Positions 13,597 through 34,552 of a DNA stretch of 59,248 nt are shown piece after piece. Position 1 is the first letter of the stretch. Each line of letters opens with the position of its first letter. The stretch is taken from contig CAZMRP010000003.1 in assembly GCA_964568275.1 (NCBI GenBank), positions 1 to 59,248 of the forward strand. Direction: 5' to 3'. The DNA comes from an uncultured Myxococcales bacterium. GTDB taxonomy: Bacteria > Myxococcota_A > Polyangia > DRWM01 > JAAZOP01. Both the position numbers and the translations under genes were made by a program. The notes beneath the pieces were generated by a model that was not told the origin of the DNA, made no database searches, and was given only the letters and a program-made list of their open reading frames with translations.

Positions 13597-14970
13597 ATGG
13601 TCGTTCCGGTCCGCGTCATCACGCATGTCCACACCCGCTACTCGACCGGAGTCGCGTCGGAGATGGATCCCGTGATCGGCGGGGCGATCCGCAGGATCAT
13701 GGGAGGTCGGGCGCTGCCCGACGCGTGGACCGAGTCCTTCACGCCCGTATCGGCGCTGCTGGAACTCGTGCGTCGTCCGGAGCGGGAACGACCCGTTGGG
13801 ATCGTCGTCGTCACCGACCACATGAACTCCCGCGCCCACGCGCTGCCCGAGGAACTGCTCTGGGCCGCGGCGTCGGAACCGCGGTTGGCCGTGGGCGCGG
13901 AGCTGGCCTGCGCGGAGCCGGACGGGGACGGCGTCCCGCGCCGCTCGCCGGAGGTGCTGGTCTACGGAGGACCGGACGCTGCTCCGGGGCCGCACGGGGC
14001 CTACCACGGGGTCTCGCAGGCGACGTTGGACGAGATGTACCGGCTGTGCCGCGCGGACGGGAGCGCAGAGCTGCAGACGAGCCGGGTGATGGGGTACTGC
14101 GAGGCGCACGGCATGGCGTACGCGCTGGCCCATCCATTCGACGGGCACGAGCTGTCGGTCGAGCGGATGGTGGACCTGGTGTCGCGGGCGAGGTTCGTCG
14201 AGGTGGTGAACGGCGGCTTCCCGCCGGAGGGCGCGAGGTTCCTCGGTGCGCTCGTGGAGTTGCAGAACGCCGTCGTGCGAGGCAGCGGTCTCTCCGCGCC
14301 CGCGGGTGAGTATTGGCCGTCCGCGGCGGAGTTCGTGCGGCGGACCCGGGTCGAGCGGCGCGGGCTCCTGCACCCCTGGGGCGGGTCGGATGCCCACGTG
14401 CAGGACTTCGACCGCGTGGTGGTCCGCTACCTGGCGGATCGCCCCGACCCTTCGGCCGGGGACCTGTTCCGGAGCATGGTCGAGCGACCCGTCGGGGAGC
14501 TGCTCGCCCGAGGCACCTTCCGGATCGAGGGCCGGCCCTCCACAGGGATGGAAGTGCTCGACGACGTCCTGCGCATCGTGGCGAAGAACCTGCTGCGGTA
14601 CGTGCCGGCGCTGGCCGGAAGTCCCCGTGTGGCAGTCGCGATGCTGCTGGAGACGGCGCGGATCACGCGGTCGGAGTTGGCCCGGCGTTCGGAGCGCCGG
14701 GCGGCGCTCCTGCGCGAGGTCGAGCGGCACTTCCCGGCCGAGGTACTCCTCTCCTGGCTGCAGCCCGGCGTGACGCGGTTGGCGACGGACAGCGCGGGGC
14801 TGGGGCACGGCATCTTGGCGACGACGGAAGCAGACCGGCCGCGCGTGGCAGAGGTGGTCACCCTGAGGCCCGGCCGATCGCGGGGAGGTGCCGGGCGGGC
14901 GGCAGGCCCCGCGTTCTGGCAGGCGGGGAGGCCGCGCGTGGACCGGAGGCCGCCGGCGGAACGTCCCTGA
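13597..14970 (+). CDS. PHP-domain metal-dependent phosphoesterase
   Basis: PHP motifs THVHTRYS, VVVTDHMN and GGSDAH. GGAGGG sits 5 nt upstream of ATG 13597; an alternative ATG is at 13510. Confidence 0.65.
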   Translation: MVVPVRVITHVHTRYSTGVASEMDPVIGGAIRRIMGGRALPDAWTESFTPVSALLELVRRPERERPVGIVVVTDHMNSRAHALPEELLWAAASEPRLAVGAELACAEPDGDGVPRRSPEVLVYGGPDAAPGPHGAYHGVSQATLDEMYRLCRADGSAELQTSRVMGYCEAHGMAYALAHPFDGHELSVERMVDLVSRARFVEVVNGGFPPEGARFLGALVELQNAVVRGSGLSAPAGEYWPSAAEFVRRTRVERRGLLHPWGGSDAHVQDFDRVVVRYLADRPDPSAGDLFRSMVERPVGELLARGTFRIEGRPSTGMEVLDDVLRIVAKNLLRYVPALAGSPRVAVAMLLETARITRSELARRSERRAALLREVERHFPAEVLLSWLQPGVTRLATDSAGLGHGILATTEADRPRVAEVVTLRPGRSRGGAGRAAGPAFWQAGRPRVDRRPPAERP

Positions 14971-17283: not shown

Positions 17284-18051
17284 GGACGGGATGCACGAGC
17301 GCATCGGTCGGATCGACTGGCGCCGGCAGCGAGCGGTGCGCCGCGCGTGGGGTTCTCCCGTGCCGGACCGACCGACGATGGTCCCTGGGCGGCGGCGTGA
17401 CCCGCGTCTCCCCCTGCAACGGAGGAGAGACGTCGCTCTCGATCTGGCCGGTCTGCTACGATTCCGCGTGCGAACAGGCTCGGTCTCGGGACACCCGCTT
17501 CCTCGACCGGATGAAGACTCCGCCGGGCAAGCCAGCGGCGGGACCGCCGTACGGAATGTGGAGGACTGTGGAATGGGGCGTGCATCCACCGCTCGGGATC
17601 GGAAGTCGAGACTCGCGAGTCCGCCTCGAGGAGGGCGCAGTCCCCGGACCAAGAAGAGCGCGGTCGTCTTCAAGCTCAGCGAGCTGGAGGCGCTTCTCCT
17701 GCTCCGGTGTCCACTCCTCGAACCCGCATGGTACTGCTCCGAACCCGGACGGCGCGAACACCGGACCGGCGATTCCCGAACAACCGCACGACGGCGTGGT
17801 CGAGCGAGGATCGCTCCGGAGGCTCCCGGGGTCGACGACCGCGTGGTCCGCACGCGCAGGGAGCGAGGCACGGAATGATGCGGTCGGGTTGCCGTGCTGC
17901 AGGTGCTGCCAGCCGCGTCCGGCGACCCAGTCGCCTTCAACCGGCGGTCCCACGAGCACTCCCGCGAACGCGTCGTCGGAGCCGAACATCGGCACGCCCG
18001 ATCGGGCCTGGACCGTGGCCGTGACCGCGGTCTCGAAACAAGGAGGTCACC

Positions 18052-19854: not shown

Positions 19855-20348
19855 GGATGCCGCATCGTTCCCGTCCTCTCCCGGAATGCCGGAGGCCCCG
19901 ACCAACGTGCACGGTATCAGCAAGGCGACGCGCCCAATCGAGCATCTGGTCGATCTCGACGAACTGGCGGCGATCGCGGAAGGGCGGGACGGGCGCTCGT
20001 GCAAGGCGGACCGGGGAACTGGGCGGAGATGTCCGGTGAAGCGGTTGCGGGCTGGGAGAAGGCCCGAGTAGAGTCCAAGCGACGACCGGGATCGGGTCCC
20101 CACGAAACGGCGTTGCCCCAACAGGGCGTGATTCCGTGCTGTTCGTGCATGTGGGGACCCGTGCCTCCGCGCTGGCGTTCGCGAAGGCCTGCGGGTGCGG
20201 GCCGGGTGCGGTCGGTTCGCGGCGCGGATGAAGCCGGACAACCTCCGGCGCGTCTGTGCGTGCGGGCGAGGCTGGGCTGGCAGATCGGCGCGGTGGTCGT
20301 CGTGGTGGAGAAGGCGTGGCGCGCCGCGCGGACTTCGGGAGGCATTGC

Positions 20349-21404
20349 TTGAGTCTGACGAAGCGCGTGATCGAGAGGATGGACCCGGTGGCGCGGGCCA
20401 GGATCGAGGCGGACTTGTTCGACCGGACGATGGGCGCCCTGGCCGAAGCGGACTACCGTGCCCGGGCGCTGGATCCTGTCGGCCCGGTGGCCTCGGTGCC
20501 GCGCGTTCGGCGCCTTCCGAAGAACGTCTGCTTCCTCGACATCGAGACGAGTTCGACGAGCTTCAAGTCCCCCGAGCGGTCCGTGATCGCGATCGTCGGC
20601 TTGATGTTCTATCGCCTTGCCGGGACCGGATACCGGTTCGTTCGACACGAGGTGTTCAGGAAGGACGATCTGCCTCGTCTCCGGCAGCGCCTGGTCTCCT
20701 TCCGCGGGGTGATCGTCGGCCACAACGTCTTCGGATTCGACTTCCGGGCTCTCCGCGCGCGGATCCCCCTCGACGGGATCATCGAGAAGTCCGCTGACAC
20801 GCTCGTCTGCCTCTACGAGTTGAACGGCCGCCAGTTGCATGGAACCGGCCTCGACGGCGTCTGCCGCGCCAACTTCAACGCGGGGAAGACGCTGCCGGGC
20901 AGGACGGTATCCGCGGCGTGGCGGGCTGGCCAGCACGCGAAGGTCGTCGCCTACAACAAGAACGACCTCCTTCTCACCAAGATGCTCTGGTGGCAGATCG
21001 TGAAGAGGCGCGTCGTGGAGATCCGCCGGCTCAACAGGTTCGGCGACGTGATCGCCAGCGTCGCGGGCCGCGTGACCGCGTCGACCCTGGGGCCGCTGCT
21101 ATGCAGCCCCAGCCTGTTCACGCTCGACGCCTGGACCGAGCGGCTCGCCGAGGAGGGTTCCATCCTGGTCAAGAACGGGCCGCTGACGATCTCTTCTCCC
21201 AGCGACGAGGACCTGGATCCCGCGGACCATGTTCCGATCCGCCGCTGCGAAGCGTGCGATTCCCCGCGGCTGCGTCGGCTTGAAGCGGACGACCTCGATC
21301 TGGACGACGCGACCGAAGGGCAGCTCGCCGAGTACCTTTCCGGGAACTGGGGCGGTGTTCTCTGCCTCGACTGCGGGAACGTGTCGTCGTGGGAGCAGCT
21401 GTAG
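20349..21404 (+). CDS. DEDD-family (RNase H-fold) 3'-5' exonuclease with a C-terminal CxxC...CxxC zinc ribbon
   Basis: Exo motifs FLDIETSS, GHNVFGFDFRAL and YNKNDLLLT. C-terminal CEACDS...CLDCGN. TTG 20349 is preceded by GGGAGG at 6 nt; an alternative ATG is at 20379. Confidence 0.75.
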   Translation: MSLTKRVIERMDPVARARIEADLFDRTMGALAEADYRARALDPVGPVASVPRVRRLPKNVCFLDIETSSTSFKSPERSVIAIVGLMFYRLAGTGYRFVRHEVFRKDDLPRLRQRLVSFRGVIVGHNVFGFDFRALRARIPLDGIIEKSADTLVCLYELNGRQLHGTGLDGVCRANFNAGKTLPGRTVSAAWRAGQHAKVVAYNKNDLLLTKMLWWQIVKRRVVEIRRLNRFGDVIASVAGRVTASTLGPLLCSPSLFTLDAWTERLAEEGSILVKNGPLTISSPSDEDLDPADHVPIRRCEACDSPRLRRLEADDLDLDDATEGQLAEYLSGNWGGVLCLDCGNVSSWEQL

Positions 21405-21447: not shown

Positions 21448-22209
21448 TCACGGTGGCAGGAACATGTCTGGCTCCGGCTTCGCGGCCTTCAACGCCATCC
21501 AGGGTGACATCAACGACTTCTCGACCGTCGCTCGCTGCCAATCCAGGAGACGCATCAAGCGGCGCTTCTGCAGCGCGATCCACCGCTGAACGTTGCCCGT
21601 GCTCTCCGCGGCGATCTTCGCCCAGCGATCTTGGAAGAGCTCGCCGAGCACGTATTCGATGGCGCCCATGGGCGTGACGAACAGGCTCGGAAGCCGCGGA
21701 ACCGAGACGGACTTCGGGAATGGCGGCGCCTCCTGATCACCCAGCACCTGGACGTGGAAGTAGCAGCCGGGAGAATTGGCGTCGCCGAGTTCCATGCGCC
21801 ACATTCCAATCGAAGCTCCGTCGTCGGCGTCGAGGAAGCGGACCCGCGTGGATGCGATGCCGCTGAACTTGATCAAGCGCTTCTGTCGCTCCTTCGGTTT
21901 TCGGGCGCTTGGTCCTTCCGGCCGGACATCCCAGGTTCCGGAGACGGAGGCAGCCACACGTCTTGCCCCCCGCCGGCTTCCCGGCTCGTACTCGCCCTCG
22001 CTCACGACGGTCCGGATCTCCCGAAGCTCCCAGCGGAAAGCACGATGCGCCGCAGCATCCCACAGCCCTTCGAGATCCTCTCCCAACTGCCGCAGTACGT
22101 GGGAGAAGCGGGAGTCGATGAGCGGGCTTGAGATGTCCTGCAGTATCTGGATCTCCTCCACGAGATCGCGGAACGCGAACAGCAGCTGCCCGGCCGTTCC
22201 CGCAGGCAT
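21448..22209 (-). CDS. hypothetical protein (253 aa), last gene of the MTase/two-component operon
   Basis: The ORF has normal composition. Its ATG overlaps the TGA of the upstream receiver gene (TGATG). I recognise no motif. Confidence 0.7.
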   Translation of the reverse strand: MPAGTAGQLLFAFRDLVEEIQILQDISSPLIDSRFSHVLRQLGEDLEGLWDAAAHRAFRWELREIRTVVSEGEYEPGSRRGARRVAASVSGTWDVRPEGPSARKPKERQKRLIKFSGIASTRVRFLDADDGASIGMWRMELGDANSPGCYFHVQVLGDQEAPPFPKSVSVPRLPSLFVTPMGAIEYVLGELFQDRWAKIAAESTGNVQRWIALQKRRLMRLLDWQRATVEKSLMSPWMALKAAKPEPDMFLPP

Positions 22210-23351
22210 CAGTCGTCAACCTCCTCAACGTCCACGCGGCCCGCGTCCATCGGATCGACCAGCGCCGTCAGGAAGGAGTCGTCCTTCGCACGCGCGATTG
22301 ATGTCCATGCATGGTCCGCAAACGCTGGCCACTGGTCCGGCAGGAGGCGCACCGCTTCATCGGCGGAGAGGTACTCTCCGGTCGGCCTCAAGTCGGCCCC
22401 CAGGCAGACGACGGATGCCTCCGCGGGCAACGGCTCGAGCCGTACCGCTGTGCGCTTTCGAAGCGCCGCGTGGAGAGTCCCGACGTCGAGAGACTTGCCA
22501 CTCGTCAGGTTCCACACGTACTCCTCGAGGGCGGCTCTCCACCACCGGCCCCCCAGGAAGCCGGCCAGGAGCCCGTGGTACCCGAACGACTTCAGGTCGC
22601 TCGCGAGCGTTCCGTTTTCGCTCATGACCGCGAGCAACGTACCGGGCGTGAGGCGAAGACGAGCGGCCACCCATTCTTCGCTCAGCAAGAAGCACGGGTA
22701 CGGCAGAACCTGGTGGAGCAGCCACCGAACGAACAGCACGCCGTGAGCACCGCCGCTCAGATCGTGGACTGGCGGCTGGCATGCACGTACGTTCCGCCTG
22801 CCACGATCAAACCAGGACGCCTTCGCGTCGAGGCCGAGGAGCTTCAACGTTTCCGATTCTGCCGCCGCGGAATCGCCCTGCGGCCAGCAGCGGGGGAGGC
22901 TCCCGACGGCATCCGCGAGGACCACCATCTGCGTCCACTTGCCGGTGTCGCTCTTGGAAAACGCCCACTCCAGATCGTGGAGCCGAGCGACGACGTGTTC
23001 GCCGCTGCTGGCTGGAAGCCGCCCGCGAACCTGGTCGAGGTGGGCCGAGTACAACGCAAACGCGGTGAGACGGTCCTTGCCGGAGCGGTCTGCATGTTCC
23101 CGAAGCACCGCCGCCAGCGCGAGGCCCGACGCAGGTCGCATCGCGAGGCTCGCTTCGCCACGCTCGGCCCAATCATCGAGAACGTAGTCCACCAGGACAA
23201 GATCGGCCTCCTCGAGGTGACGCTGTTCGACCTCTCGCGGGTGGAGCACCTCGAAGCGCGCCCGGCCCTGCAAGCCGAGAGTCATCTCGCTGCGAAGCGA
23301 GTCGACATCGTCGTCGACGGCAAGGACTAGCGGCAGGTCGGAAGCAGCCAT
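22209..23351 (-). CDS. receiver (REC)-domain protein with an unknown C-terminal domain of about 250 aa
   Basis: N-terminus LPLVLAVDDDVDSL...ADLVLVDYVLDDW...AFALYSAH fits the CheY-like acidic pocket, phospho-Asp and Ser/Thr pattern. GAGGAAG RBS sits 7 nt before ATG 23351. The upstream Arg-rich extension was rejected. Confidence 0.7.
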   Translation of the reverse strand: MAASDLPLVLAVDDDVDSLRSEMTLGLQGRARFEVLHPREVEQRHLEEADLVLVDYVLDDWAERGEASLAMRPASGLALAAVLREHADRSGKDRLTAFALYSAHLDQVRGRLPASSGEHVVARLHDLEWAFSKSDTGKWTQMVVLADAVGSLPRCWPQGDSAAAESETLKLLGLDAKASWFDRGRRNVRACQPPVHDLSGGAHGVLFVRWLLHQVLPYPCFLLSEEWVAARLRLTPGTLLAVMSENGTLASDLKSFGYHGLLAGFLGGRWWRAALEEYVWNLTSGKSLDVGTLHAALRKRTAVRLEPLPAEASVVCLGADLRPTGEYLSADEAVRLLPDQWPAFADHAWTSIARAKDDSFLTALVDPMDAGRVDVEEVDD

Positions 23352-23364
23352 GTTGGACTTCCTC

Positions 23365-25677
23365 TCATCCCGGGAAGGTAATCTCGATGGCCGTTGCGTA
23401 CCGCCGGCTCGGCCTGACGAAACGGACCTCGGCCCCATACTCCCTGAGAACGGACCGCGTGATCGGAAGACCAAGGCCCATCCCTTGGCCGAGCGCTGGG
23501 TCGAGCTCCGTGGTTGTGGACTCGAAGGGACGGAACCAGCGTTCCGACTCGACGAGCTTGACGGCCACACCCGTGTTCTCAATTCGGACCCGCAGGTTCC
23601 CCTCCGGATCAGAGGACGTCGACGCACGGATTTCGCCATCCATTCCTGCAGCCTTGACGGCGTTGGTGAGCAGATTCGCGAGAACCGTAGTCACCTCCGC
23701 GGCGAACATGGGGGGCGTCCTCGCATCGGGGGAGATGTCGTTCACGATGCGGGTGCGCCGCCGCTCGGCTTGGTGCGACACAAGGCTCACGGCGGCATCG
23801 AAGCGGTCCGCCAAGCGTTGGCGGGATCGACGGCGCCTCGCGTCGGGCGTGACGACGTCGGTCAAGTACGATGCCTGCCTCTCGAGTCCTCGGCGAAGGT
23901 CGGACACGGCCGCCAGGAGTGCCCTGAGTCTCCGACGATGCGGCCGCGCAAGCGTGTCGTCTGCGGCGATCTCCCTCAAGGCCTCTTCGACCGTTCGCGA
24001 GGCGCCGAGCAGCGCGTTGATCTCGTGGACAAAGGCGGCCATCTGCGTGCCAACGGACGCGACGACCCGGAACAAGGACTGCTCCGAAATGAGGTCCTCT
24101 GCGGCTCCTCGAGCCTCGGTGAGCCGTCGCCCGGCCTCGTCGTGTGCCCTGCCCGCCGCCTCAATATCGCCGGACGCCACAAGCGAGCGCGCTTGATGGA
24201 GGAGAGCGGCCGCCTCGCCGATTCCTGCGCGGACATCCTGGCTTGGCGGGGCCTCAGCGCCTTCGCCCCCTTCCTCGTGTTGAGTGCGACCGCTGGTTGC
24301 TCTCTGCTGCTTGCGCTCCTGCCGGCGGAGGTAGGCAGCCGAGGCGCGAACGCGGGTGCACAGGTCGACGCCCGTCCGAACGAGCGACACCAGAACGTCG
24401 AAGCCGGCCTCGGGAACAAACCCCTCGCGATTGACCAGCGCTCGGAGCGAGGCAGCATTCTCCTGCGTCAAGAACACCGCACCCACGTAGTTGTTGTTTG
24501 GAAGCCGAATCAGTCCTTCATCCTCGTCCTGAGCGGTCGGGAGTTGGCCCGAGCTCTCCCATGCACGCAACATCTCAAGCTGGCGCTTGCGGCCTGTGTA
24601 GTCCAAGTCGATGGACAGCCAATCGTCCTTGGGCTCCCCATACGGAAGAACACGAAAACCCTCGAGGTACACGCGAATGCCACTCGAGCGGCTCGCCCAG
24701 ACCCGTTGGTCCTGCTTGCCCTGGAAGCGGCCCTCTCGGACCAGGATCCGAGCATCGAAGAACGGTCCACGCTTGGGCGATGGATGGTCCAGCGTCGTCC
24801 GAGAAGGGCGTGCTTTGGGGTTGTCGCGGAGGGCGCGCCTGGTGGGCGCGATAGAGTAGTGGACCTTCCCGTCGCGCAACGCGCGGACCTCGAGAACCCA
24901 GCTCGCCGTCTGCGCGACAAGCTGCCAGTACTCGTCGCCCGATGCGAATTCGCCTTCAAGCAGAACCGCGAACTCGTCGGTTCCGCCGGATGAGGAAGGC
25001 TCACGAATGAGCGGCGACTCGAACAGGAGAGGTTGCCTGACGACGCTTGGCGGAAGCCCCTGTTTCAGAAAAGAAGGGGCGTCAAACGACTGAACCTCAG
25101 CGAAGAACCGTGCGCGCTCCACAGGAGTCCACGACCGCCGCAGGCGCGAAAGCACGATGGTTGTGCCCGGACGCGCCTTCGGGGAAGCAGGAACCGGCTC
25201 GTCAACCACGATCGCATCCGCGGCGTCAAGGTCATCGAGCGTCGCGCAAGCCTCCACCTTGTCCCAGTCGATGACGGCCTCCAGAACATCTCGAGGGTCG
25301 CCTGCAGATGACGCCCACGGAATGCTCTTGATCTCCAGTCGGCGGGCGAGCTTGTGCGCCGCCAGCCGCCCGATGCCCTTGGCCCCCGTGTAGCGCCGCC
25401 CAAGGCGCGCCGAGCGCCTGTCGCGCTCCTCCTTGATGCGAGACGCTACTCGGAGGAACCCGTCATCGAACAGGCGGCGTGTCATTCCGGTGCCGTTGTC
25501 CGTGACGATGATGCGGCCGGCATCCGGGTCGTTGAGGCGCTCCCCGTAGACGGTGACGGTGGTAGCGTCGGCATCGTAGGAGTTCTTGACGAGTTCGACC
25601 AGCGCCGTCGAATCGCGCCCAACAAGTAGTTCGCCGAGCTCGCGGAAAAGGTGGGTGTCGACGGTGAACTTAGGCAC
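23365..25677 (-). CDS. fusion protein: N-terminal MORC/Hsp90-like GHKL ATPase plus C-terminal histidine-kinase core (H-box plus HATPase_c); no TM segments
   Basis: N-terminal Bergerat motifs ELVKNSYDADA, IIVTDNGTGMT and GAKGIGRLAAHK. C-terminal H-box AAFVHEINALLG, N-box LANLLTNAVKA and G-box GQGMGLGLPITRSV. GTG 25677 has GGAGG 5 nt upstream and overlaps the MTase stop by 8 nt. Confidence 0.8.
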   Translation of the reverse strand: MPKFTVDTHLFRELGELLVGRDSTALVELVKNSYDADATTVTVYGERLNDPDAGRIIVTDNGTGMTRRLFDDGFLRVASRIKEERDRRSARLGRRYTGAKGIGRLAAHKLARRLEIKSIPWASSAGDPRDVLEAVIDWDKVEACATLDDLDAADAIVVDEPVPASPKARPGTTIVLSRLRRSWTPVERARFFAEVQSFDAPSFLKQGLPPSVVRQPLLFESPLIREPSSSGGTDEFAVLLEGEFASGDEYWQLVAQTASWVLEVRALRDGKVHYSIAPTRRALRDNPKARPSRTTLDHPSPKRGPFFDARILVREGRFQGKQDQRVWASRSSGIRVYLEGFRVLPYGEPKDDWLSIDLDYTGRKRQLEMLRAWESSGQLPTAQDEDEGLIRLPNNNYVGAVFLTQENAASLRALVNREGFVPEAGFDVLVSLVRTGVDLCTRVRASAAYLRRQERKQQRATSGRTQHEEGGEGAEAPPSQDVRAGIGEAAALLHQARSLVASGDIEAAGRAHDEAGRRLTEARGAAEDLISEQSLFRVVASVGTQMAAFVHEINALLGASRTVEEALREIAADDTLARPHRRRLRALLAAVSDLRRGLERQASYLTDVVTPDARRRRSRQRLADRFDAAVSLVSHQAERRRTRIVNDISPDARTPPMFAAEVTTVLANLLTNAVKAAGMDGEIRASTSSDPEGNLRVRIENTGVAVKLVESERWFRPFESTTTELDPALGQGMGLGLPITRSVLREYGAEVRFVRPSRRYATAIEITFPG

Positions 25678-27394
25678 GCCTGCCTCCGTTCCGCTCAGGA
25701 AGACGCTGGGCTGCGAGGCCCCGGCGGGCGAGCTGAAGCCTGGCAACGTCTCGGCGCGAGGCCCCGAGGCCGAGACGAAGTACCATCTCGTCGGCGTACG
25801 AGCGGGCGGCGTCCTCCCTCCCTGCGCGGATCAGCGCAGAGCATTCGCGAAACACCGCGTCTGCAGAGTCGACTAGGGGTACGGGCATTCGCCGCAGTGC
25901 GCCCGGCTCCAGCTTCAGCACGCCGCCACCATATCGACGGCCGTTGACCTCGGCCCAGAGCGCCGAGAGGCTCGTGAGAACGCCAACCGATACAGCCTCC
26001 GGTTCGGCCGAAGGAACGCCGTTCCATGTGACCGCGTGAAGCGCGTTGCTGCAGCGAAGGCCAGCGTGGTTGAGGACGAGCAGAGGAGGCCCCAGGCGTG
26101 AACACGTGGCGAAGGCATCCGGGGCCGGGCCCAACTTGACGCGAAACCACGGCAGACGCCCGCGGCACTTGAAGCGTCGGTGGACACCCTCCTCGACACC
26201 CTGGGCAACCCACGCATCGACTGCCGGGTTCGTGGTCAACCACTGGGCAGGCCTGACGAGGACGGTCCGTCGGCCGAGTTCGGTCAACTGACTGTGGTCG
26301 TCGTGGGTGAAGTTGAGCCCGCTCAACCACTGGGTCCTTGCAACGACCGGGACCAGCGCGCGGGCGGGAATGCCCGCCCGACTTGCTTCCAGGCGGCTGC
26401 GGACGAAGAAGTGGTTTGCGCCCGTGACGAATCCGATCCGAATGGTCGCCAGTTGCCCGAGGGGAGCCACGCTGTCTGCGGACGAGAGGTCGTCAAGGAG
26501 GGCCAAGGCGGCGGAGTCAACAACGCGTGCGTTACTCGTCACCTTCGTGGCTGGGCGGGCGCCAGCTCTCCCGTGTAGCAAGCGGGCGAGCTCGCCCGCA
26601 CGACGAACCGCATGCACGCGCAGGATCCCTGGTCCGGTGCCATGTGCGGCCAGGACGACAACTGGCTCGTCCGTCTCGTTGAAGATGCGATCGCGGAGAT
26701 GGACCAGGAGGACGTCTGCAAACCGGCGCTGGAGGGCGTCACGGACGGGCCTCGCATAGTCGGCTTGAAGGAGAGCCTCGGGGAGAAGGAGTGCAAGCCG
26801 ACCGTCCGGGGCAAGGAACCGCAGTGCGTGGATGACGAAGTAGGCCCACGTGCTCGCGGTGGCCGGAAGGCGGATGCCAGACGCAGCCGCCGCAGAACGA
26901 GCCGCCGAACGCTCGCGTCCCCGCAGCCAATGGTGGCGGACGTAGGGGGGATTGCCGACGATCGCTCGAAAGGGGAGGCCGCGCAATTCGCCGGGTGACA
27001 CGTCCAAGAAGTCGGCCGTCAGGTGGTTTCTCTCCGGCAGGAGCCCGTTGGCGTGATCCACGCAGGCGGGATCGATATCGACCCCGTAGACGAGAGATCG
27101 GGGCCGGTTCGCACGCATCTCGCGTAGAACACCCACAGCGGCGCGGACGAACGAACAGCCGCCGTAGCTTGGGTCGAGCACGGTGCCGGGCCGCGAAGCC
27201 AAGGCCCACCGAGTGAGGACGGTCGCCAGATCATCGGGCGTGTAGAATGCGCCCCGGAGGCGCTGGTCAGCAACTGGACCGTCGCGATGCTGTGCGAGAT
27301 CACGGGCGCCCACCGCCGAGAGCTGGGCCGCGCGAGCGACGCCGACGCGGGGGTGCCGGACGCGTGCGCGTTCCAACGGCTGGATCGGCGGCAC
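25670..27394 (-). CDS. gamma-class N6-adenine DNA methyltransferase (Eco57I/TaqI-like, with a C-terminal target-recognition region)
   Basis: Motifs AFYTP, VLDPSYGGCSF (motif I) and IVGNPPYVRH (motif IV, NPPY). GTG 27394 is preceded by GAGGAGGG at 6 nt; the longest ORF starts at 27415. Confidence 0.85.
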   Translation of the reverse strand: MPPIQPLERARVRHPRVGVARAAQLSAVGARDLAQHRDGPVADQRLRGAFYTPDDLATVLTRWALASRPGTVLDPSYGGCSFVRAAVGVLREMRANRPRSLVYGVDIDPACVDHANGLLPERNHLTADFLDVSPGELRGLPFRAIVGNPPYVRHHWLRGRERSAARSAAAASGIRLPATASTWAYFVIHALRFLAPDGRLALLLPEALLQADYARPVRDALQRRFADVLLVHLRDRIFNETDEPVVVLAAHGTGPGILRVHAVRRAGELARLLHGRAGARPATKVTSNARVVDSAALALLDDLSSADSVAPLGQLATIRIGFVTGANHFFVRSRLEASRAGIPARALVPVVARTQWLSGLNFTHDDHSQLTELGRRTVLVRPAQWLTTNPAVDAWVAQGVEEGVHRRFKCRGRLPWFRVKLGPAPDAFATCSRLGPPLLVLNHAGLRCSNALHAVTWNGVPSAEPEAVSVGVLTSLSALWAEVNGRRYGGGVLKLEPGALRRMPVPLVDSADAVFRECSALIRAGREDAARSYADEMVLRLGLGASRRDVARLQLARRGLAAQRLPERNGGRRA

Positions 27395-27517
27395 TACCGA
27401 CCCTCCTCGCCACACCGAGCTTCGTTCCGGTGTTCGCAGGACTCGCGGGCCGCCCGGGGGACCCCTTCCGTCACGCTAGCTCGACGAGGAGGCATCCCAC
27501 CGAGCCGCGAGAAGAGG

Positions 27518-27760
27518 CTACCCACGACGTGCTCCGTGCCGCTTGGCTGGATGCGGTGTACGAGCCGGCCGGGTGCCTCTCCCATGCACTTCCAGCTTCC
27601 TCTCCTCGATCCAGCGGTCCAGATCGACCCGCTTGAATCGCCAATGACCTCGGATCCGGAACGCGGGCAACTCGCCGAGTTGAGCCATGGAGTAGACGGT
27701 CTTCTCCGCCAGCTTGAGCAGTCCTGCGACGTCCTTGATGGTGAGGACCTCGTCGGTCAT
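27518..27760 (-). CDS. excisionase/MerR-like HTH DNA-binding protein (likely operon regulator)
   Basis: LTIKDVAGLLKLAEKTVYSMAQLGELPAFRIRGHWRFKRVDLDRWI. GAGGGAG RBS 7 nt upstream. It is the first gene on the minus strand, divergent from hsdR. Confidence 0.8.
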   Translation of the reverse strand: MTDEVLTIKDVAGLLKLAEKTVYSMAQLGELPAFRIRGHWRFKRVDLDRWIEERKLEVHGRGTRPARTPHPAKRHGARRG

Positions 27761-28131
27761 TCACGGACTCCCTCGGCTAGCGGTCCACCCGAGTCGCCCC
27801 AGTTCCAACGCAGGGTATCCTATTCCAACTCCACGGCGTCAACAACTCCTGGTCCGGCATGCCGTACCGGGGCGCCGCGCGGGCGAGGCAGTCGGGCTTC
27901 TGCCATCCCAACGGGCGTCGCCCATCGGCCACGGCATGGATGCGGAGCTGGGTCCTGCCCGGGCCGGTGCGGTCCTCTCCATCGGGCTGCTCCGTGCTGT
28001 TGCGGGATGCCCTCGCGCTCCGTTACCATTCCGATCGCCAGCATGGACTCCGCGGCCAATCTCGATGTCGTGTCCACGTGTCGGCGGGTCCCACCGTCGG
28101 CGACGCACGATGTGGCGCTCCGAGGCTGCCG

Positions 28132-30498
28132 ATGAACGAAGCCGACACCTGCCGCAAGTACGTCGTCCCGAAGCTCCAGGCGGCCGGGTGGGACCAGGAG
28201 CCGCACGTCATCAACGAGCAGGCGACCTTCACGGACGGCCGGATCGTCGTGGCGGGACGGAAGGCGCGGCGGCGGGTTGGGAAGCGCGCCGACTACCTGC
28301 TCCGGTACCGCCCGGACATGCCGATCGCCGTGGTCGAGGCGAAGCCGGAGTACAAGACGCCGGGCGAGGGGCTCCAGCAGGCGAAGGAGTACGCCGAGAT
28401 CCTTGGGCTGAAGTTCGCGTACGCCACCAACGGCCACGGCATCATCGAGTTCGACTGCACTACCGGCGTCGAGCGCGAGATCGACAGCTTCCCGACGCCG
28501 GACGAGCTGTGGTCGCGCCTCTGCGGCGAACAGAAGCTCGTGCCGGAGCAGGCGGATCGACTGTTGACGTCCGGCTACGGCCTGGCCGGCAAGGCGCCCC
28601 GGTACTACCAGACGATCGCGATCAACCGGACGGTGCAGGCCGTCCTTCAGGGGAAGCGGCGCATCCTGCTCACGATGGCGACGGGCACCGGCAAGACGCT
28701 CGTCGCCTTCCAGATCTGCTGGAAGCTGTGGACCTCGCGCTGGAACCGCGACGGGGGACACCGGCGGCCGCGAATCCTGTACCTGTCCGATCGGAACATC
28801 CTGATCGACGACCCCAAGGACAAGACGTTCGCGCCGTTCGGTGATGCCCGCTGGAAGATCGAGGACGGCGTTGCCCAGCGCGGCCGCGAGATGTACTTCG
28901 CCATCTACCAGGCGATCGCACGCGACGAGCGCCGCCCCGGCCTCTACCGCGAGTACCCTCCCGACTTCTTCGATCTGATCATTGTGGACGAGTGCCACCG
29001 CGGGAGCGCCGCCGACACCAGCAACTGGCGCGAGATCCTCGAGTACTTCGAACCGGCGCTCCAGATCGGCATGACGGCGACGCCCCTCCGGAAGGAGAAC
29101 GCCGACACGTACCGCTACTTCGGCAAGCCGATCTACACCTACACGCTGCGGCAGGGCATCGAGGACGGGTTCCTCGCGCCCTACCGCGTCCACCGGATCA
29201 TTACGACCTGGGACGCCGCCGGCTGGCGCCCGAGCCAGGGCGACGTCGACCGCTACGGGCGCGAGATCCCGGACGAGGAGTACCAGACCCGCGACTTCGA
29301 GCGCACGGTCGCGCTCCGTGCCCGGACCGAGGCGGTGGCGAACCACCTCACCGGGTTCCTCAAGGCCACCGATCGCTACGCCAAGACGATCGTGTTCTGC
29401 GTGGACCAGGAACATGCCGACGAGATGCGCCGTGCGATCAACAACCGCAATGCCGACCTCGTGCGGAAGGCCCCCGACTACGTCTGCCGGGTGACCGCCG
29501 CCGAGGGCGACATCGGCCGCGGCCACCTCTCCAACTTCCAGGACGTCGAGAGGGCGACCCCCGTCGTCCTTACGACGTCGCAGATGCTGACCACGGGGGT
29601 CGATGCGCCGACCGTTCAGAACGTCGTCCTGGTGCGCGTCATCAACTCGATGACGGAGTTCAAGCAGATCATCGGCCGTGGTACCCGCGTCCGCGACGAC
29701 TACGGCAAGCTGTACTTCAATATCCTGGACTACACCGGCTCGGCGACGCGGATGTTCGCGGACCCGGAGTTCGACGGCGACCCGTCCATCGAGACCGAGC
29801 AGGAGATCGACGAGGCCGGGGCCCCGAAGGAGCCCGAGACGGTCGTCTACCCCGAGGCAGAGGAGGACGACCTGCCGCACATCTCCGCAGAGCCCCCGGA
29901 GGTCTACGGGTCGCCGGGGTCCGAGCGCCGGAAGTACTACTTCGACGGCGGGCAGGTCGCCATCGCCTCGCAACTCGTCTACGAACTCGACCCCGACGGG
30001 AAGCAGCTCCGGGTCATGCACTTCACCGACTACACCGCCGAGAAGGTCCGGACGCTGTTCCGGAACGCTGCTGCGCTCCGCGGGGAGTGGGCCGACCCGG
30101 TCCAACGGCGCGACATCATCGAGCGGCTCGCCGAGCGTGGCATCGACTTCGACGAGCTGGCGGACGCGGCGCAGCTTCCTGAGGCCGACCCGCTCGACCT
30201 GATGTGCCACCTCGCGTTCAACGCGCCCCTGCGCACGCGGCGGGAGCGGGCGCAGCGGCTGCGCCGGGAGGAGCGGGAGTTCTTCGAGCGCTTCGGCGCG
30301 GAGGCGCGCCAGATCCTGGACGAACTCCTGGACAAGTACACCGAGCACGGCACGGCGCAGTTCGTCCTGCCGGACGTTCTTGAGGTGCCGCCGATCAACG
30401 CGCATGGTACCGTCCTCGACATCGCCCGCCACTTCGGCGGCGAGGGCAACCTCGTCGAGGCGGTGAACCGGCTCCAGACGCTGCTCTACGCGGCGTGA
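28132..30498 (+). CDS. hsdR: type I restriction enzyme R subunit
   Basis: N-terminal NEADTCRKYVVPKLQAAGW, helicase motifs MATGTGKTLVAFQ (Walker A) and IIVDECHRGS (DEAD-box II), and later TSQMLTTGVDAP and QIIGRGTR motifs. Confidence 0.9.
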   Translation: MNEADTCRKYVVPKLQAAGWDQEPHVINEQATFTDGRIVVAGRKARRRVGKRADYLLRYRPDMPIAVVEAKPEYKTPGEGLQQAKEYAEILGLKFAYATNGHGIIEFDCTTGVEREIDSFPTPDELWSRLCGEQKLVPEQADRLLTSGYGLAGKAPRYYQTIAINRTVQAVLQGKRRILLTMATGTGKTLVAFQICWKLWTSRWNRDGGHRRPRILYLSDRNILIDDPKDKTFAPFGDARWKIEDGVAQRGREMYFAIYQAIARDERRPGLYREYPPDFFDLIIVDECHRGSAADTSNWREILEYFEPALQIGMTATPLRKENADTYRYFGKPIYTYTLRQGIEDGFLAPYRVHRIITTWDAAGWRPSQGDVDRYGREIPDEEYQTRDFERTVALRARTEAVANHLTGFLKATDRYAKTIVFCVDQEHADEMRRAINNRNADLVRKAPDYVCRVTAAEGDIGRGHLSNFQDVERATPVVLTTSQMLTTGVDAPTVQNVVLVRVINSMTEFKQIIGRGTRVRDDYGKLYFNILDYTGSATRMFADPEFDGDPSIETEQEIDEAGAPKEPETVVYPEAEEDDLPHISAEPPEVYGSPGSERRKYYFDGGQVAIASQLVYELDPDGKQLRVMHFTDYTAEKVRTLFRNAAALRGEWADPVQRRDIIERLAERGIDFDELADAAQLPEADPLDLMCHLAFNAPLRTRRERAQRLRREEREFFERFGAEARQILDELLDKYTEHGTAQFVLPDVLEVPPINAHGTVLDIARHFGGEGNLVEAVNRLQTLLYAA

Positions 30499-30509
30499 AC
30501 GGGTGAACG

Positions 30510-32099
30510 ATGGCAAGATCGAGGAAGCCGAGGGCCGACGCCCAGCCGCAGACCACGGCGCAGCAGCTCGGCAGCGTGATCAAGAGCGCCCGGGACATCA
30601 TGCGGAAGGACAAGGGGCTGTCGACGGACATCGATCGCCTTCCGCTCCTCACCTGGGTGATGTTCCTCAAGTTCCTCGACGACCTGGAGCAGATCGAGGA
30701 GTCGAAGGCGAAGATGCGCGGGGAGCGGTACCGGTCGGCGATCGAGCGGCCATACCGCTGGCGCGACTGGGCGGCGCAGCCGGACGGCATGACCGGGCCC
30801 GAGCTCCTCGCCTTCGTCAACCTGGAGAGGGCCACCCGGCCGGACGGTACGGAGGGTGCGGGCCTTCTCGCGTACCTCCGCGGGCTCCAGGGTGGCAACG
30901 GGAGCACGGTGAGCCGGCGCCGCCGAGTCATCGCCGCGGTGTTCAAGGACATCACCTGCCGGATGCTCTCGGGCTACCTGCTGCGCGACGTCGTCAACAA
31001 GGTGAACGGCATCCACTTCCTGGCGAAGGAGGAGCTGTTCACGCTGGGCCATCTCTACGAGACGATGCTGCGCGAGATGCGCGACGCTGCGGGCGAGAAC
31101 GGGGAGTTCTACACGCCGCGACCGGTCGTCCGGTTCATGGTGACCGTGACCGACCCGCGGCTCGGGGAGACGATACTCGACCCGGCGTGCGGGACCGGCG
31201 GTTTCCTCGTCGAGGCGTACCGACACCTCGAGCAGCAGTGCAAGACCGTCGGCGATCGGAAAACGCTCCAGGAGAGGAGCCTCCTTGGCGGCGAGGCGAA
31301 GCCGCTCCCGTACCTCCTCTGCCAGATGAACCTCCTGCTCCACGGCCTGGAGGCGCCGCAGATCGACCCCGAGAACAGCCTGCGGTTCAAGCTCTCCGAG
31401 ATGGGCGACGCCGATCGTGTCGACGTGATCCTGACGAACCCTCCCTTCGGCGGCGAGGAGGAGGCGGGCATCAAGGGCAACTTCCCGGAGGACATGCAGA
31501 CCGCGGAGACCGCGCTGCTGTTCCTTCAGCTCATCATGCGCCGGCTGCGGCGGCCCGGGCGCGGGTCCGAGCGCGGCGGGCGGGCGGCGGTCGTCGTTCC
31601 CAACGGCACGCTGTTCGGCGACAAGGTGTGCGCTCGGATCAAGGAACAGGTCCTCAAGGAGTTCAATCTGCACACCGTGGTCCGGCTGCCCAACGGCGTC
31701 TTCGCGCCGTACACGCCGATCCCGACCAACCTGTTGTTCTTCGATCGCTCGGGGCCGACGAAGGACATCTGGTTCTACGAGATCACGCCGCCCGAGGACC
31801 GGAAGAGCTACTCGAAGACCAAGCCGATGCAGTTCGAGGAGTTCGCCGACTGCATCGCGTGGTGGAGGAAGCGGAAGCCAAACGGCCGCGCCTGGAAGGT
31901 CCGGGCGGAGGACGTGCTGAAGTACGACGCTGATGGGCGGCTCGTTTCGGCAAACCTCGACCTCAAGAACCCCAGCGCGGCCGAGGCGCTCGAGCACCTG
32001 CCGCCCGAGCAGCTCGCCGACGAGATCCTCCAGAAGGAGCGGCGGATCATCGAGATCGTCGAGGAGATCAAGCGCCAGCTCGCCGAGGACGGGCCATGA
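30510..32099 (+). CDS. hsdM: type I R-M N6-adenine DNA methyltransferase subunit
   Basis: N-terminal HsdM domain (DIMRKDKGLSTDIDRLPLLTWVMFLKFLDD), motif I DPACGTGGFL and motif IV LTNPPFGG. Confidence 0.92.
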   Translation: MARSRKPRADAQPQTTAQQLGSVIKSARDIMRKDKGLSTDIDRLPLLTWVMFLKFLDDLEQIEESKAKMRGERYRSAIERPYRWRDWAAQPDGMTGPELLAFVNLERATRPDGTEGAGLLAYLRGLQGGNGSTVSRRRRVIAAVFKDITCRMLSGYLLRDVVNKVNGIHFLAKEELFTLGHLYETMLREMRDAAGENGEFYTPRPVVRFMVTVTDPRLGETILDPACGTGGFLVEAYRHLEQQCKTVGDRKTLQERSLLGGEAKPLPYLLCQMNLLLHGLEAPQIDPENSLRFKLSEMGDADRVDVILTNPPFGGEEEAGIKGNFPEDMQTAETALLFLQLIMRRLRRPGRGSERGGRAAVVVPNGTLFGDKVCARIKEQVLKEFNLHTVVRLPNGVFAPYTPIPTNLLFFDRSGPTKDIWFYEITPPEDRKSYSKTKPMQFEEFADCIAWWRKRKPNGRAWKVRAEDVLKYDADGRLVSANLDLKNPSAAEALEHLPPEQLADEILQKERRIIEIVEEIKRQLAEDGP

Positions 32100-33187
32100 A
32101 CTTCAACCAGCTCATTGACCGGCTGAAGAACGTCCACGAGCGGCTGGCGACCGAGGCGGTTCGTGCCGTCAACGCCGGGCTGACGGTGCGGAACTGGCTC
32201 ATCGGGATGCACCTGTACGAGTTCGAGCAGAATGGCAGCGACCGCGCGGCCTACGGCGAGCAGCTCGTGGAGCGGGTAGCCGAGCGGCTCGCCGCCGAGG
32301 GGCTCCCACGAACTGACGCCCGCGAGCTTCGCCGGTACCGGCAGTTCTACCTGACCTACCCCCAGATTCGGGAGGCACTGCCTCCCGAATCCTCCTCGCT
32401 CTTGCCGGCGCCAATTCGGGAGTCAGCGACTCCCGAATCTTCCCTGGCCGCCGAGCGGCTTCTTCGCGCCATTTCCTTCACTCATTTCGTAGAGTTGTTG
32501 AAGATCGAGGATCCGACCACACGGAGCTTCTACGAGATCGAGTGCATCCGAGGGCAGTGGTCCGCGCGGGAGCTGAAGCGGCAGATCTCGAGCCTCCTCT
32601 ACGAGCGGTCTGGGCTCTCGCTCGACAAGGCGAAGCTCACGGCCATCGCGCAGGCGGCGGCGGAGAGCGACACGCCGGCGCTCGCCATCCGCGACCCGTA
32701 CGTGTTCGAGTTCCTGGGCCTCAAGCCGTGCGAGGCCATGCGCGAGTCCGATCTCGAGGACGCGCTGCTCGACAAGATCGAGCAATTCCTGCTTGAGCTC
32801 GGGAAGGGGTTCTGCTTCGAGGCGCGCCAGAAGCGGTTGCTCATCGGCGACGAGCACTTCTTCGTCGACCTGGTCTTCTACCACCGCATCCTGAAGTGCC
32901 ACGTCCTGATCGAGTTGAAGGTGGACGGGTTCAAGCACGAGTACCTCGGCCAGCTCAACACGTACGTGAACTGGTACCGGGAGAACGAGATGAGCGCGGG
33001 CGACAACCCGCCCGTGGGGATCCTGCTCTGCACGGCGAAGAACCAGGCATTGGTGCGGTACGCGCTTGCCGGCATCGACAACCGCCTCTTCGTCTCGAAG
33101 TACCAGCTCGAGTTGCCGGATGAGGCGCAGATGCGGGCTTTCCTCGAGGCGCAGATGCGAGGCGGGCGCAGGGAGCCGCGGAAGTGA
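32096..33187 (+). CDS. YhcG/DUF1016-family PD-(D/E)xK nuclease embedded in the type I operon
   Basis: DPYVFEFLGL, GKGFCFEARQKRLLIGDEHFFVDLVFYHRILKCHVLIELKVDGF and SKYQLELPDE blocks. There are 4-nt overlaps with both hsdM and hsdS. Confidence 0.85.
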   Translation: MNFNQLIDRLKNVHERLATEAVRAVNAGLTVRNWLIGMHLYEFEQNGSDRAAYGEQLVERVAERLAAEGLPRTDARELRRYRQFYLTYPQIREALPPESSSLLPAPIRESATPESSLAAERLLRAISFTHFVELLKIEDPTTRSFYEIECIRGQWSARELKRQISSLLYERSGLSLDKAKLTAIAQAAAESDTPALAIRDPYVFEFLGLKPCEAMRESDLEDALLDKIEQFLLELGKGFCFEARQKRLLIGDEHFFVDLVFYHRILKCHVLIELKVDGFKHEYLGQLNTYVNWYRENEMSAGDNPPVGILLCTAKNQALVRYALAGIDNRLFVSKYQLELPDEAQMRAFLEAQMRGGRREPRK

Positions 33188-34380
33188 CTTCCAACTGGCC
33201 CCAGGTTCCGCTCGGCGATCTTCTCGATCCTGTCGTGCGGCCCGTGGACGTCCGCCCAGACGAGACCTACCGCGAGATCGGCATCCGCTCGCACGGCAGG
33301 GGCATCTTCCACAAGGAGCCCGTGAGCGGTCTGGAACTGGGCAACAAGCGCGTCTTCTGGATCGAGCCGGGCAACTTCGTGCTGAACATCGTCTTCGCGT
33401 GGGAGGGAGCCGTCGCGATCACCGGCCCGTCCGAACAGGGGATGATCGGTTCCCACCGTTTCCCTGCCTTCCGCGCGAGGGCGGACCGCCTCGATCCCAG
33501 ATTCCTCCTGTGGTTCTTCAAGACACCGCAGGGCTTGGACCTGTTGGGACGGGTTTCGCCTGGCGGAGCGGGACGGAACAGGACTCTCTCGAAGTCGGCC
33601 TTCCTCCAGCAGTCGGTCCCGGTTCCGTCATTGGACGAGCAACGCCGCATCGTCGAGAGATTGGAGCGGCTGGAATCGCAGGTCGCGGAGGCAGCGGACC
33701 TGTGCCGTCGAGCAGAGGCCGAGGCAGCGCAGCTTGTCGGTGCCGTGGTGGGTAGCGCATTCTCGGCCCTCCGGCGTGGCGACTGCTTCTGCGGCGGCTT
33801 GGGCGACGTCATTGCAGGGGCGTGCTACGGAACTTCCGAGAAGACGCACGACGAGCCAAGTGGCCTCCCGATTCTGAGGATGGGCAACATCCAGGAGGGC
33901 GTCCTCGACATCCGCGACGTGAAGTACCTACCATTCACAAGCGGCCACCGGGACAACCTTGTGCTCCAGAAGGGTGACATCCTGGTCAACCGGACCAACA
34001 GCCCCGAGCTCGTTGGCAAGAGCGCCGTGTTCGACCTGGACGGGGTGTGGGGCTTTGCGTCCTATCTCATCCGAATTCGATTGGACGCAAGCCGTGCGGA
34101 CTCGCGCTTGGTCACCTTCTACATCAACTCACCTGCCGGAAGGACCTACATGCTCGGGTCGAAGAAGCAGATGACGGGTCAAGCAAACGTCAGCATCGAG
34201 ACGCTGCGAGCACTGCCCGTCGTGCTGCCACCGATGCAGAAGCAGTTGGAGATGGCCGACCTCTTCGAGCGGATCAGGGTCAGCTCAAGGGATGCGACCG
34301 CGAACCATGCGCTCGTCGAGGCTCGGCTGCGTGCCCTCCAGGCCTCCGCCCTGGGGCGCGCTCTGGCAGGGGAGTTCTGA
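33184..34380 (+). CDS. hsdS: type I R-M specificity subunit
   Basis: Two target-recognition halves separated by the conserved coiled spacer PSLDEQRRIVERLERLESQVAEA. A second conserved helix lies at the C-terminus. Confidence 0.88.
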   Translation: MTSNWPQVPLGDLLDPVVRPVDVRPDETYREIGIRSHGRGIFHKEPVSGLELGNKRVFWIEPGNFVLNIVFAWEGAVAITGPSEQGMIGSHRFPAFRARADRLDPRFLLWFFKTPQGLDLLGRVSPGGAGRNRTLSKSAFLQQSVPVPSLDEQRRIVERLERLESQVAEAADLCRRAEAEAAQLVGAVVGSAFSALRRGDCFCGGLGDVIAGACYGTSEKTHDEPSGLPILRMGNIQEGVLDIRDVKYLPFTSGHRDNLVLQKGDILVNRTNSPELVGKSAVFDLDGVWGFASYLIRIRLDASRADSRLVTFYINSPAGRTYMLGSKKQMTGQANVSIETLRALPVVLPPMQKQLEMADLFERIRVSSRDATANHALVEARLRALQASALGRALAGEF

Positions 34381-34420
34381 ATGGGCCGTCGACAGAATGA
34401 AGAGGGGAACGCGGCCGTCC

Positions 34421-34457
34421 GCCCCGCCCCCGGCCGAAGCCGGGGACGAGGCGGGGC
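34421..34457 (+). terminator. GC-rich compound hairpin downstream of hsdS (terminator-like, no U-tract)
   Basis: Outer stem GCCCCGC (34421-27) pairs with GCGGGGC (34451-57). Inner stem CCCCGGC (34428-34) pairs with GCCGGGG (34439-45), with a CGAA tetraloop. It lies 40 nt after the hsdS stop. Confidence 0.45.
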
Positions 34458-34482
34458 AAAGGCCATGGATCAGGCGGACGGC

Positions 34483-34503: not shown

Positions 34504-34508
34504 TTTTC

Positions 34509-34545: not shown

Positions 34546-34552
34546 GAAGTCC

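Follow-up and report, generated by a model that had tools for sequence, protein, structure and literature searches.

Does a DNA methyltransferase that shares an operon with a two-component phosphorelay serve in phage defence, and, if so, is such an arrangement new? The question is raised by five co-directional minus-strand genes at positions 21448-27760 of a 59,248-nucleotide (nt) stretch of contig CAZMRP010000003.1 (assembly GCA_964568275.1) from an uncultured Myxococcales bacterium, the whole of which is referred to here as the window. A first-pass annotation had proposed the operon as a methyltransferase-linked two-component defence candidate, and this proposal fits the conserved synteny, the intact catalytic residues and the island context reported below, with Ambrosia, a phage-defence system of P. 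aeruginosa (10.1101/2025.09.30.679545), as its closest validated relative. On balance, we lean towards the operon being a methylation-linked, phosphorelay-gated defence module of Ambrosia's broad class, with a post-translational effector formed by a receiver protein and an orphan protein, here termed X.

To describe the operon, we went through the minus-strand sequence between 27900 and 21300, listed its open reading frames (ORFs) and took the gene anatomy from the letters, which gave the following genes (lengths in amino acids, aa):

27760..27518, minus strand: small helix-turn-helix (HTH) protein, 80 aa, ATG start
27415..25670, minus strand: DNA methyltransferase, 581 aa from the GTG start of the longest ORF (homologues align only from about residue 41-52), TAA stop
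25677..23365, minus strand: GHKL-histidine kinase fusion, hereafter the kinase, 770 aa, GTG start, TGA stop
23351..22209, minus strand: receiver protein, 380 aa
22209..21448, minus strand: orphan protein X, 253 aa

The end of the methyltransferase gene runs 8 nt into the start of the kinase gene (GTGCCTAA), a 13-nt spacer (GAGGAAGTCCAAC) separates the kinase TGA from the receiver ATG, and the receiver stop and the X start are joined as TGATG. These three junctions are exactly those described in the first-pass annotation, and its five co-directional genes, with the domains and overlaps claimed for them, were likewise borne out by coordinates, junctions and domain matches. The methyltransferase, kinase, receiver and X genes are four translationally coupled genes. 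The same 8-nt methyltransferase/kinase overlap was found in four distant homologous loci (L001, L002, L085 and L086), and because it recurs in the operons of unrelated organisms, the coupling is a conserved feature and not a product of chance. The reading frames are further supported by the contrast between G+C at the third codon position (0.74-0.80) and at the second (0.47-0.54) in the operon genes.

In the kinase, Pfam placed HATPase_c_3 at residues 24-118 and HATPase_c at 662-769, and a profile of 25 homologues searched against the PDB matched MutL and MORC2 at positions 19-86 and solved histidine kinases at 550-753. The middle domain (about residues 120-470) was strongly conserved, with the motifs GIRVY.EGFRVLPYG...DDW and NREGF; the S5-fold transducer expected of a paraMORC protein beside its MutL- and MORC2-matching GHKL part was sought with a middle-domain profile, which matched nothing in the PDB or Pfam. 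The phospho-accepting H551 was kept in 77/77 homologues, the H551-E552 pair was invariant or nearly so, N668 was also conserved, and at least 76 of the 77 retained E28, N32, D60, G62, G64, G98-G103, N672, G703 and G732-G736; the H-box His and the N, G1, F and G2 boxes of a canonical two-component kinase were all present. The protein is therefore predicted to be a soluble kinase composed of an N-terminal MutL/MORC-like GHKL module, the middle domain, a coiled linker, and a DHp H-box (His551) with a CA domain, in which the sensor position appears to be held by a MutL/MORC-like (paraMORC) GHKL ATPase.

The receiver protein had no Pfam match even at E up to 10, and none in NCBIfam or PADLOC. Its AlphaFold model (predicted local distance difference test score, pLDDT, 88.7; predicted template modelling score, pTM, 0.87) matched dozens of receiver domains in Foldseek, including BeF3-activated structures, with probability 1.0 and a template modelling (TM) score, target-normalised, of up to 0.69. 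Asp13, Asp14, Asp55, Thr96 and Lys133 were positioned as the receiver signature demands, with D13 and D14 in the acidic pocket, D55 as the phospho-Asp and K133 as the Lys. D55, G260 and W271 were kept in 69/69 homologues and D14 in 68/69, and the motif Y258-x-G260...R-W-W271 was conserved in the C-terminal domain. The protein is an atypical response regulator, in which a receiver domain at about residues 1-135 leads into a conserved C-terminal domain of some 230 residues. Across the kinase and the receiver, the residues expected to serve ATP binding in both GHKL modules, His autophosphorylation and Asp phospho-acceptance are all conserved.

X had been called unknown, and this held: there was no match in Pfam, NCBIfam or PADLOC, a PDB profile search was empty, and no sequence relative of known function was found. 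Its AlphaFold model was confident (pLDDT 91.3), and Foldseek gave no fold match for it in the PDB (best E 0.1, TM below 0.2) or in BFVD (best E 0.12). Only H152, P171 and R172 were invariant across the superfamily, with a looser pattern of W-[HR]-x-[DE]...HPxYHxQxGG...PR...PPMD. In the model His152 lies in a strand and Arg172 in the next strand, with a helix after it, an arrangement that prompted a reading of X as a ββα-Me (His-Me finger) nuclease; no fold match was obtained for this reading, which is kept as a lead only. The literature searched held no characterisation of X or of the receiver C-terminal domain. X is the conserved third gene of the core described below and a putative effector.

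The methyltransferase matched N6_Mtase (6.6e-13), M_Eco57I_C (4.1e-11) and Eco57I (7.1e-08) in Pfam and, over its full length, the PADLOC MTase_II model PDLC03267 (2.2e-85). Its motif I at residue 81 precedes NPPY at residue 155, the gamma-class order, and it is predicted to be a gamma-class N6-adenine DNA methyltransferase with its own Eco57I-type target-recognition domain. In a Pfam census of the genes beside the kinase core, an Eco57I-type methyltransferase occupied 24/71 upstream and 33/74 downstream positions, together with three C5 methyltransferases and one N6_N4 methyltransferase among the neighbours. A methyltransferase is nearly always present and usually adjoins the core, while its side, orientation and subfamily vary among loci, and this variability is the behaviour of the modification module in a modular system resembling restriction-modification (R-M). 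In Tannerella forsythia, a member of the distant clade (L076, 8827-9948), a gene with a PAPS-reductase domain lies directly upstream of the kinase gene, with a 692-aa ORF before it; modules that modify DNA other than by methylation may also be partners of the core.

The HTH protein matched Pfam HTH_17 (3.4e-17; excisionase/MerR-like), the PADLOC mad1 model (3.6e-10) and NCBIfam antiphage_MADS1 at 75.9 bits, just below the cut-off of 80. In the operon of L086 an XRE HTH replaces HTH_17, and in L001, L002 and L085 no HTH lies directly upstream of the methylase gene; the HTH is an accessory part of the system and varies among loci. In L086 (6823-13062), whose operon is a close homologue, the stop of the XRE-type HTH gene overlaps the methyltransferase start, and the order HTH-methyltransferase-kinase-receiver-X is exactly that of Ambrosia. 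Just upstream of this operon lie genes for a 925-aa N6_N4 methyltransferase and a UvrD-family helicase, which may constitute another defence system.

The kinase family is large and highly conserved. It comprised more than 2,000 homologue clusters, of which the best 120 were 56-73% identical to the window kinase over the full length and, where a source was named, came from Gemmatimonadetes, Poribacteria and Latescibacteria. A one-genome-per-species scan yielded at least 589 confirmed matches, and the family spans many phyla, including Actinomycetota, Acidobacteriota, Bacteroidota, Planctomycetota, Chloroflexota, Campylobacter and others. To survey synteny, which the first-pass annotation had recommended for the kinase fusion, profiles of the window receiver and X families were iterated over all ORFs of 84 homologous loci; this was a small home-made ORF set on which E-values are not database-wide, and matches were trusted because they stood at the expected syntenic position. 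The receiver lay directly downstream of the kinase in 73/84 loci and X directly after the receiver in 61/84. This receiver-X synteny held both in close relatives (40-73% identity) and in a distant clade (22-29%) that includes Bacteroidota, Campylobacter and Mesorhizobium. Kinase, receiver and X form a conserved three-gene core across many phyla, usually adjoined by a DNA methyltransferase. The patchy distribution over many phyla, together with the 56-73% identity, points to horizontal transfer, and the methyltransferase, paraMORC-histidine kinase, response regulator and X are a conserved, horizontally mobile four-gene module.

The receiver-family profile missed a 392-458-aa ORF that follows the kinase in L041, L060, L064, L069, L073, L075, L079 and L081; L082 likewise had no receiver-profile match after the kinase, and no downstream ORF was picked there. 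In L069 this kinase-adjacent ORF is followed by a 225-aa ORF, and neither has a Pfam match. Beyond receiver-X and the AbrC-AbrD pair of Ambrosia, these loci may point to a third set of partners for the kinase family.

What such a module might do is best approached through Ambrosia, described in a 2025 preprint as five genes, AbrR-AbrA-AbrB-AbrC-AbrD, that encode an XRE regulator, a type II N6-adenine methyltransferase, a histidine kinase (HK)/HSP90-like ATPase, a REC protein and an HNH nuclease; its phage defence has been validated and depends on each of the five genes and on the receiver Asp, and infection induces the system (10.1101/2025.09.30.679545). We compared the operon with the Ambrosia protein sequences of Table S1 of that preprint, AbrB being used as residues 1-399 and AbrA as a fragment. 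In BLASTP, AbrB 1-399 aligned with residues 4-420 of the window kinase, which cover the GHKL and middle domains, at 27% identity (E 4e-27), and AbrB was about 30% identical to the distant-clade kinases. The defence reading is supported because the kinase is homologous to AbrB, a component of a validated system that needs all five genes and the receiver Asp; because a paraMORC GHKL module also heads a Shedu defence nuclease (PMC12137116); and because the operon lies in a low-G+C, integrase-bearing stretch, back-to-back with a type I R-M system.

We propose that the methyltransferase would mark host DNA, while the paraMORC head and the middle domain of the kinase would dimerise on ATP at foreign or unmodified DNA, or in response to another infection cue. 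Dimerisation would lead to autophosphorylation of His551 and transfer of the phosphate to Asp55 of the receiver, and the phosphorylated receiver, through its unique C-terminal domain, would switch on X. Co-produced stoichiometrically by the TGATG coupling, X would probably act as a hydrolase or nuclease around His152 and Arg172 and would take the slot that the HNH nuclease AbrD holds in Ambrosia, and the upstream HTH protein would be an exchangeable, control-protein-like regulator. X is favoured as a post-translational effector because of this AbrD slot, its co-translation with the receiver, and a receiver C-terminal domain unlike DNA-binding outputs. If this holds, DNA restriction would be controlled by a cascade normally found in environmental sensing, with a MORC-like ATPase as DNA sensor, unlike in type I-IV R-M, BREX and DISARM. 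The receiver C-terminal domain and X may also hide new effector chemistry, as neither has recognisable relatives among solved structures, nor X among predicted viral ones. A bolder version, in which a DNA-clamping paraMORC head reads DNA methylation or foreignness directly, phosphotransfer to a new kind of response regulator activates X post-translationally, and the whole is a distinct system much more widespread than Ambrosia, strikes us as possible and rather doubtful; in such a system a phosphorelay would gate restriction, in place of a nuclease with target recognition of its own.

Several results weigh against the defence reading. No nuclease or other effector fold was recognised in X, in the receiver C-terminal domain or in the kinase middle domain: PDB profile searches with the receiver C-terminal domain gave nothing significant, and a profile of the kinase middle domain matched nothing in the PDB or Pfam and contained no nuclease motif. 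The receiver family was missing from 11/84 loci and X from 23/84, several of these loci being truncated. AbrC shared with the receiver family only the generic receiver fold (hhalign probability 0.2; no BLASTP match at 1e-3), AbrD gave an hhalign probability of 0.4 against the X profile, and an HNH Pfam match was found nowhere in the operon; with the receiver and X lacking detectable homology to AbrC and AbrD, the Ambrosia results would carry over only through the kinase. In Ambrosia itself, methylation by AbrA gives the phage no protection, and its authors favour transcriptional control (10.1101/2025.09.30.679545). The defence genes seen near homologous loci are descriptive only, having neither a background control nor an enrichment statistic, and the literature searched contained no experiment on the kinase-receiver-X family.

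The main rival, nearly as likely and itself held tentatively, is that the kinase-receiver pair senses infection and induces the operon transcriptionally, the receiver C-terminal domain binding DNA, while the methyltransferase and X act as an unconventional R-M-like pair. Ambrosia reporters that replace abrA or abrD are induced on infection and the AbrC D60A mutation abolishes defence (10.1101/2025.09.30.679545), both as this explanation would have it, and control of R-M systems by pairs of histidine kinase-like (HK-like) and response regulator-like (RR-like) proteins had been speculated on earlier (PMC8011034). The receiver C-terminal domain also contains a helix-rich segment, at about residues 204-245, and its best PDB profile match was a GntR-type HTH, at a non-significant E of 0.47. 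Yet this domain matches no known DNA-binding output family, the window receiver has no detectable relation to AbrC beyond the receiver fold, and kinase, receiver and X form one coupled unit, so that the effector could stay silent while the sensor is expressed only if the whole operon autoregulates.

We consider it unlikely that the operon has no part in defence and is instead a cytoplasmic two-component system coupled to an orphan methyltransferase, with a role in stress or epigenetic control, or else a selfish addiction module merely carried along by mobile islands. Pectobacterium homologues were first noticed as up-regulated under stress in planta, their function was left open in that work (PMC8011034), and three of the homologous loci (L001, L002 and L085) sit among ordinary metabolic genes. 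Such a role is hard to square with the horizontal transfer indicated by the patchy spread over many phyla at 56-73% identity, with the swapping of methyltransferases and of their position, with the presence of the module in islands that carry integrases and other defence genes, or with the requirement for the homologous kinase AbrB in Ambrosia phage defence. Least likely is that the GHKL protein is an ATP-dependent type II restriction endonuclease of the BbrUII/HgiDII kind whose HK-like C-terminus is only a second ATPase: the NCBIfam BbrUII/HgiDII model NF050001 (1.2e-21) and the PADLOC REase_II models PDLC03419 and PDLC03485 do match the kinase N-terminus, and DefenseFinder labels AbrB a type II restriction endonuclease (Table S1, 10.1101/2025.09.30.679545), but the NF050001 match covers only profile positions 2-175/659, in the GHKL region, at 76.9 bits, far below the cut-off of 550, the remainder forms a complete H-box and CA kinase core whose His is invariant, a receiver whose phospho-acceptor Asp never varies adjoins the kinase in 73/84 loci, and PDB and Pfam profile searches found no nuclease motif in the middle domain. 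Apart from this resemblance of the kinase N-terminus to the BbrUII/HgiDII GHKL part, the earlier statement that the operon contains no restriction endonuclease motif stood, no nuclease family being matched.

The surroundings of the operon were then considered, with these features:

27761..27858, 98 bp: intergenic, separates the divergent HTH and hsdR genes; presumed promoter/operator region
20256-21404, plus strand: DEDD-like gene, convergent with X, its stop 43 nt from the X stop
32096-33187, plus strand: YhcG/DUF1016 PD-(D/E)xK nuclease gene, matching PADLOC candidate PDC-S02 (5e-129)
34991-36172, minus strand: tyrosine integrase, just inside the right copy of the direct repeat described below

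The window has about 70% G+C, which dips from 0.72 to 0.67 over about 17.6-36.5 kb (0.670 versus 0.719 and 0.705 in the flanks). A 15-nt exact direct repeat, GCAGTCCCCGGACCA, has its only copies in the window at 17637-17651 and 36536-36550, against 0.07 expected by chance. The repeat pair is plausibly a pair of candidate att sites that delimit an 18.9-kb integrated genomic island; a scan for a tRNA gene as integration site found none. The island contains the NOV_C/DUF3883 gene, the weak DEDD-like gene, the five-gene operon and the type I R-M system. Third-position G+C was 0.74-0.80 in the operon genes versus 0.90-0.93 in hsdR, hsdM, the DUF1016 gene and the integrase gene (27859-36172), which suggests that the operon was acquired separately and more recently from a donor of lower G+C. 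The adjacent type I R-M system had been described as complete; hsdR, hsdM and hsdS were all confirmed, and the system was found to include an extra gene, YhcG/DUF1016, between hsdM and hsdS, each of which it overlaps by 4 nt. The neighbour described as DUF3883 nuclease-like gave a NOV_C/DUF3883 match (1.6e-10). The gene described as a DEDD exonuclease is present, its identity being indicated by sub-threshold matches only (DNA_pol_B_exo2 E 0.0023, RNase_H_2 E 0.0042, PADLOC DEDDh E 0.0073).

The flanks of homologous loci held Hma, Gabija, type I R-M, DRT, BrxL, GmrSD and integrase genes, and a PADLOC census of 118 flanking ORFs gave Hma, Gabija, type I specificity subunits, DRT and TmtA, each with at most two members. 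Within the 98-bp divergent region of the window, GTTGGAA occurs twice on the minus strand, 20 nt apart (27829-27823 and 27809-27803); the pair, a short motif spotted by eye whose frequency was not compared with chance, may serve the HTH_17 protein as an operator or form a control region shared with hsdR. This region contains no sigma-70 consensus, as expected at 70% G+C, and a promoter/terminator scan returned no sites, a result that is uninformative for high-G+C sequence. Two long ORFs of high third-position G+C, at 36507-38399 (minus strand, 630 aa) and 13417-14970 (plus strand, 517 aa), have no Pfam match, and the former spans the right copy of the candidate att repeat.

Among known systems, all that PADLOC v2.0.0 detects in the operon is the methyltransferase, the MAD1-like HTH and an N-terminus mislabelled 'type II REase', and with this partial recognition it would miss or misfile the system. 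The first-pass annotation had likened the operon to Detocs, Pgl/BREX type 2 and MADS, and membership of none of these was borne out, the sole trace being the MAD1-like HTH just under its cut-off. Detocs consists of the kinase DtcA, the Hpt buffer DtcB and the receiver-PNP effector DtcC, and it is not known to have a methyltransferase or a paraMORC sensor head. The operon resembles it in using a two-component phosphorelay as a defence signalling device, and no Hpt, PNP effector or Detocs-type PADLOC match was found among the five proteins. For Pgl/BREX type 2, Pfam and PADLOC gave no PglW Ser/Thr kinase, PglZ phosphatase or PglX match among the five proteins. In the MADS model, MAD6-8 are mandatory and MAD1, MAD2 and MAD5 are accessory, resembling R-M parts or common regulators (10.1101/2023.03.30.534895). 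The operon is alike in having a MAD1-like small HTH ahead of an N6-adenine methyltransferase gene and unlike in that its methyltransferase scored 17.8 bits against a MAD2 cut-off of 720; no MAD3-8 match was found among the five proteins in PADLOC or NCBIfam.

ParaMORC GHKL ATPases were placed in R-M systems by Iyer et al. in 2008 (PMC2292703), and Shedu VcSduA/paraMORC3 is a validated defence nuclease headed by a GHKL module that, as its authors propose, controls the nuclease (PMC12137116). The window kinase shares with these proteins an N-terminal MutL/MORC-like GHKL module and a middle domain that head a C-terminal output, as well as mobile R-M/defence contexts, whereas its output is a histidine-kinase core that would signal to a separate receiver and not a fused nuclease. 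Closer still are the genes of Bellieny-Rabelo et al. (2021), who described soluble 'HK-like' proteins of HATPase_c_3, HEF_HK and HATPase_c, 91.6% of them linked to 'RR-like' genes, in R-M neighbourhoods, and proposed a descent from paraMORC ATPases while leaving function open (PMC8011034). The likeness extends to the soluble HATPase_c_3, DHp (His-Glu) and HATPase_c arrangement, the adjoining receiver-like protein without other known domains, the R-M context and the taxa, which overlap, for example, in Chryseobacterium, Flavobacterium, Mesorhizobium and Conexibacter relatives. The neighbourhoods of those pairs are dominated by C5 cytosine methyltransferases, HNH_2 and Vsr, in contrast to about 57 Eco57I-type versus 3 C5 methyltransferases here, and the conserved third gene X is undescribed there, being at most an unnamed orthologous group. 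The models PF19191 (HEF_HK) and PF19192 (Response_reg_2) matched neither the window kinase and receiver nor the five distant homologues from L063, L069, L076, L080 and L083, even with E values as high as 10 allowed, in a Pfam copy unconfirmed to hold both models; PF19191 was also absent from the precomputed Pfam lists of the 120 kinase homologues.

The gene order and domain composition had been put forward as undescribed, a claim that gives way to two precedents, the HK-like/RR-like pair of 2021 (PMC8011034) and Ambrosia in 2025, which has the same gene order. Ambrosia and the operon share the succession of a small HTH, an N6-adenine methyltransferase, a soluble HATPase_c_3/HATPase_c kinase, a receiver and a small terminal protein. 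They differ in the regulator (HTH_17 here versus the HipB-like XRE protein AbrR), in the methyltransferase, which is of the N6_Mtase class and apparently of a different subfamily from AbrA (the AbrA fragment gave no BLASTP match to it at 1e-3), in the receiver (380 aa with a unique 230-aa C-terminal domain versus the 209-aa AbrC), and in the terminal gene (X versus the HNH nuclease AbrD). They differ also in range, Ambrosia having been reported only in Gammaproteobacteria (10.1101/2025.09.30.679545), whereas the window family occurs in many phyla. The operon is a widespread cousin of Ambrosia, the only validated member of the methylase-linked paraMORC-kinase/receiver class, and not a categorically new system.

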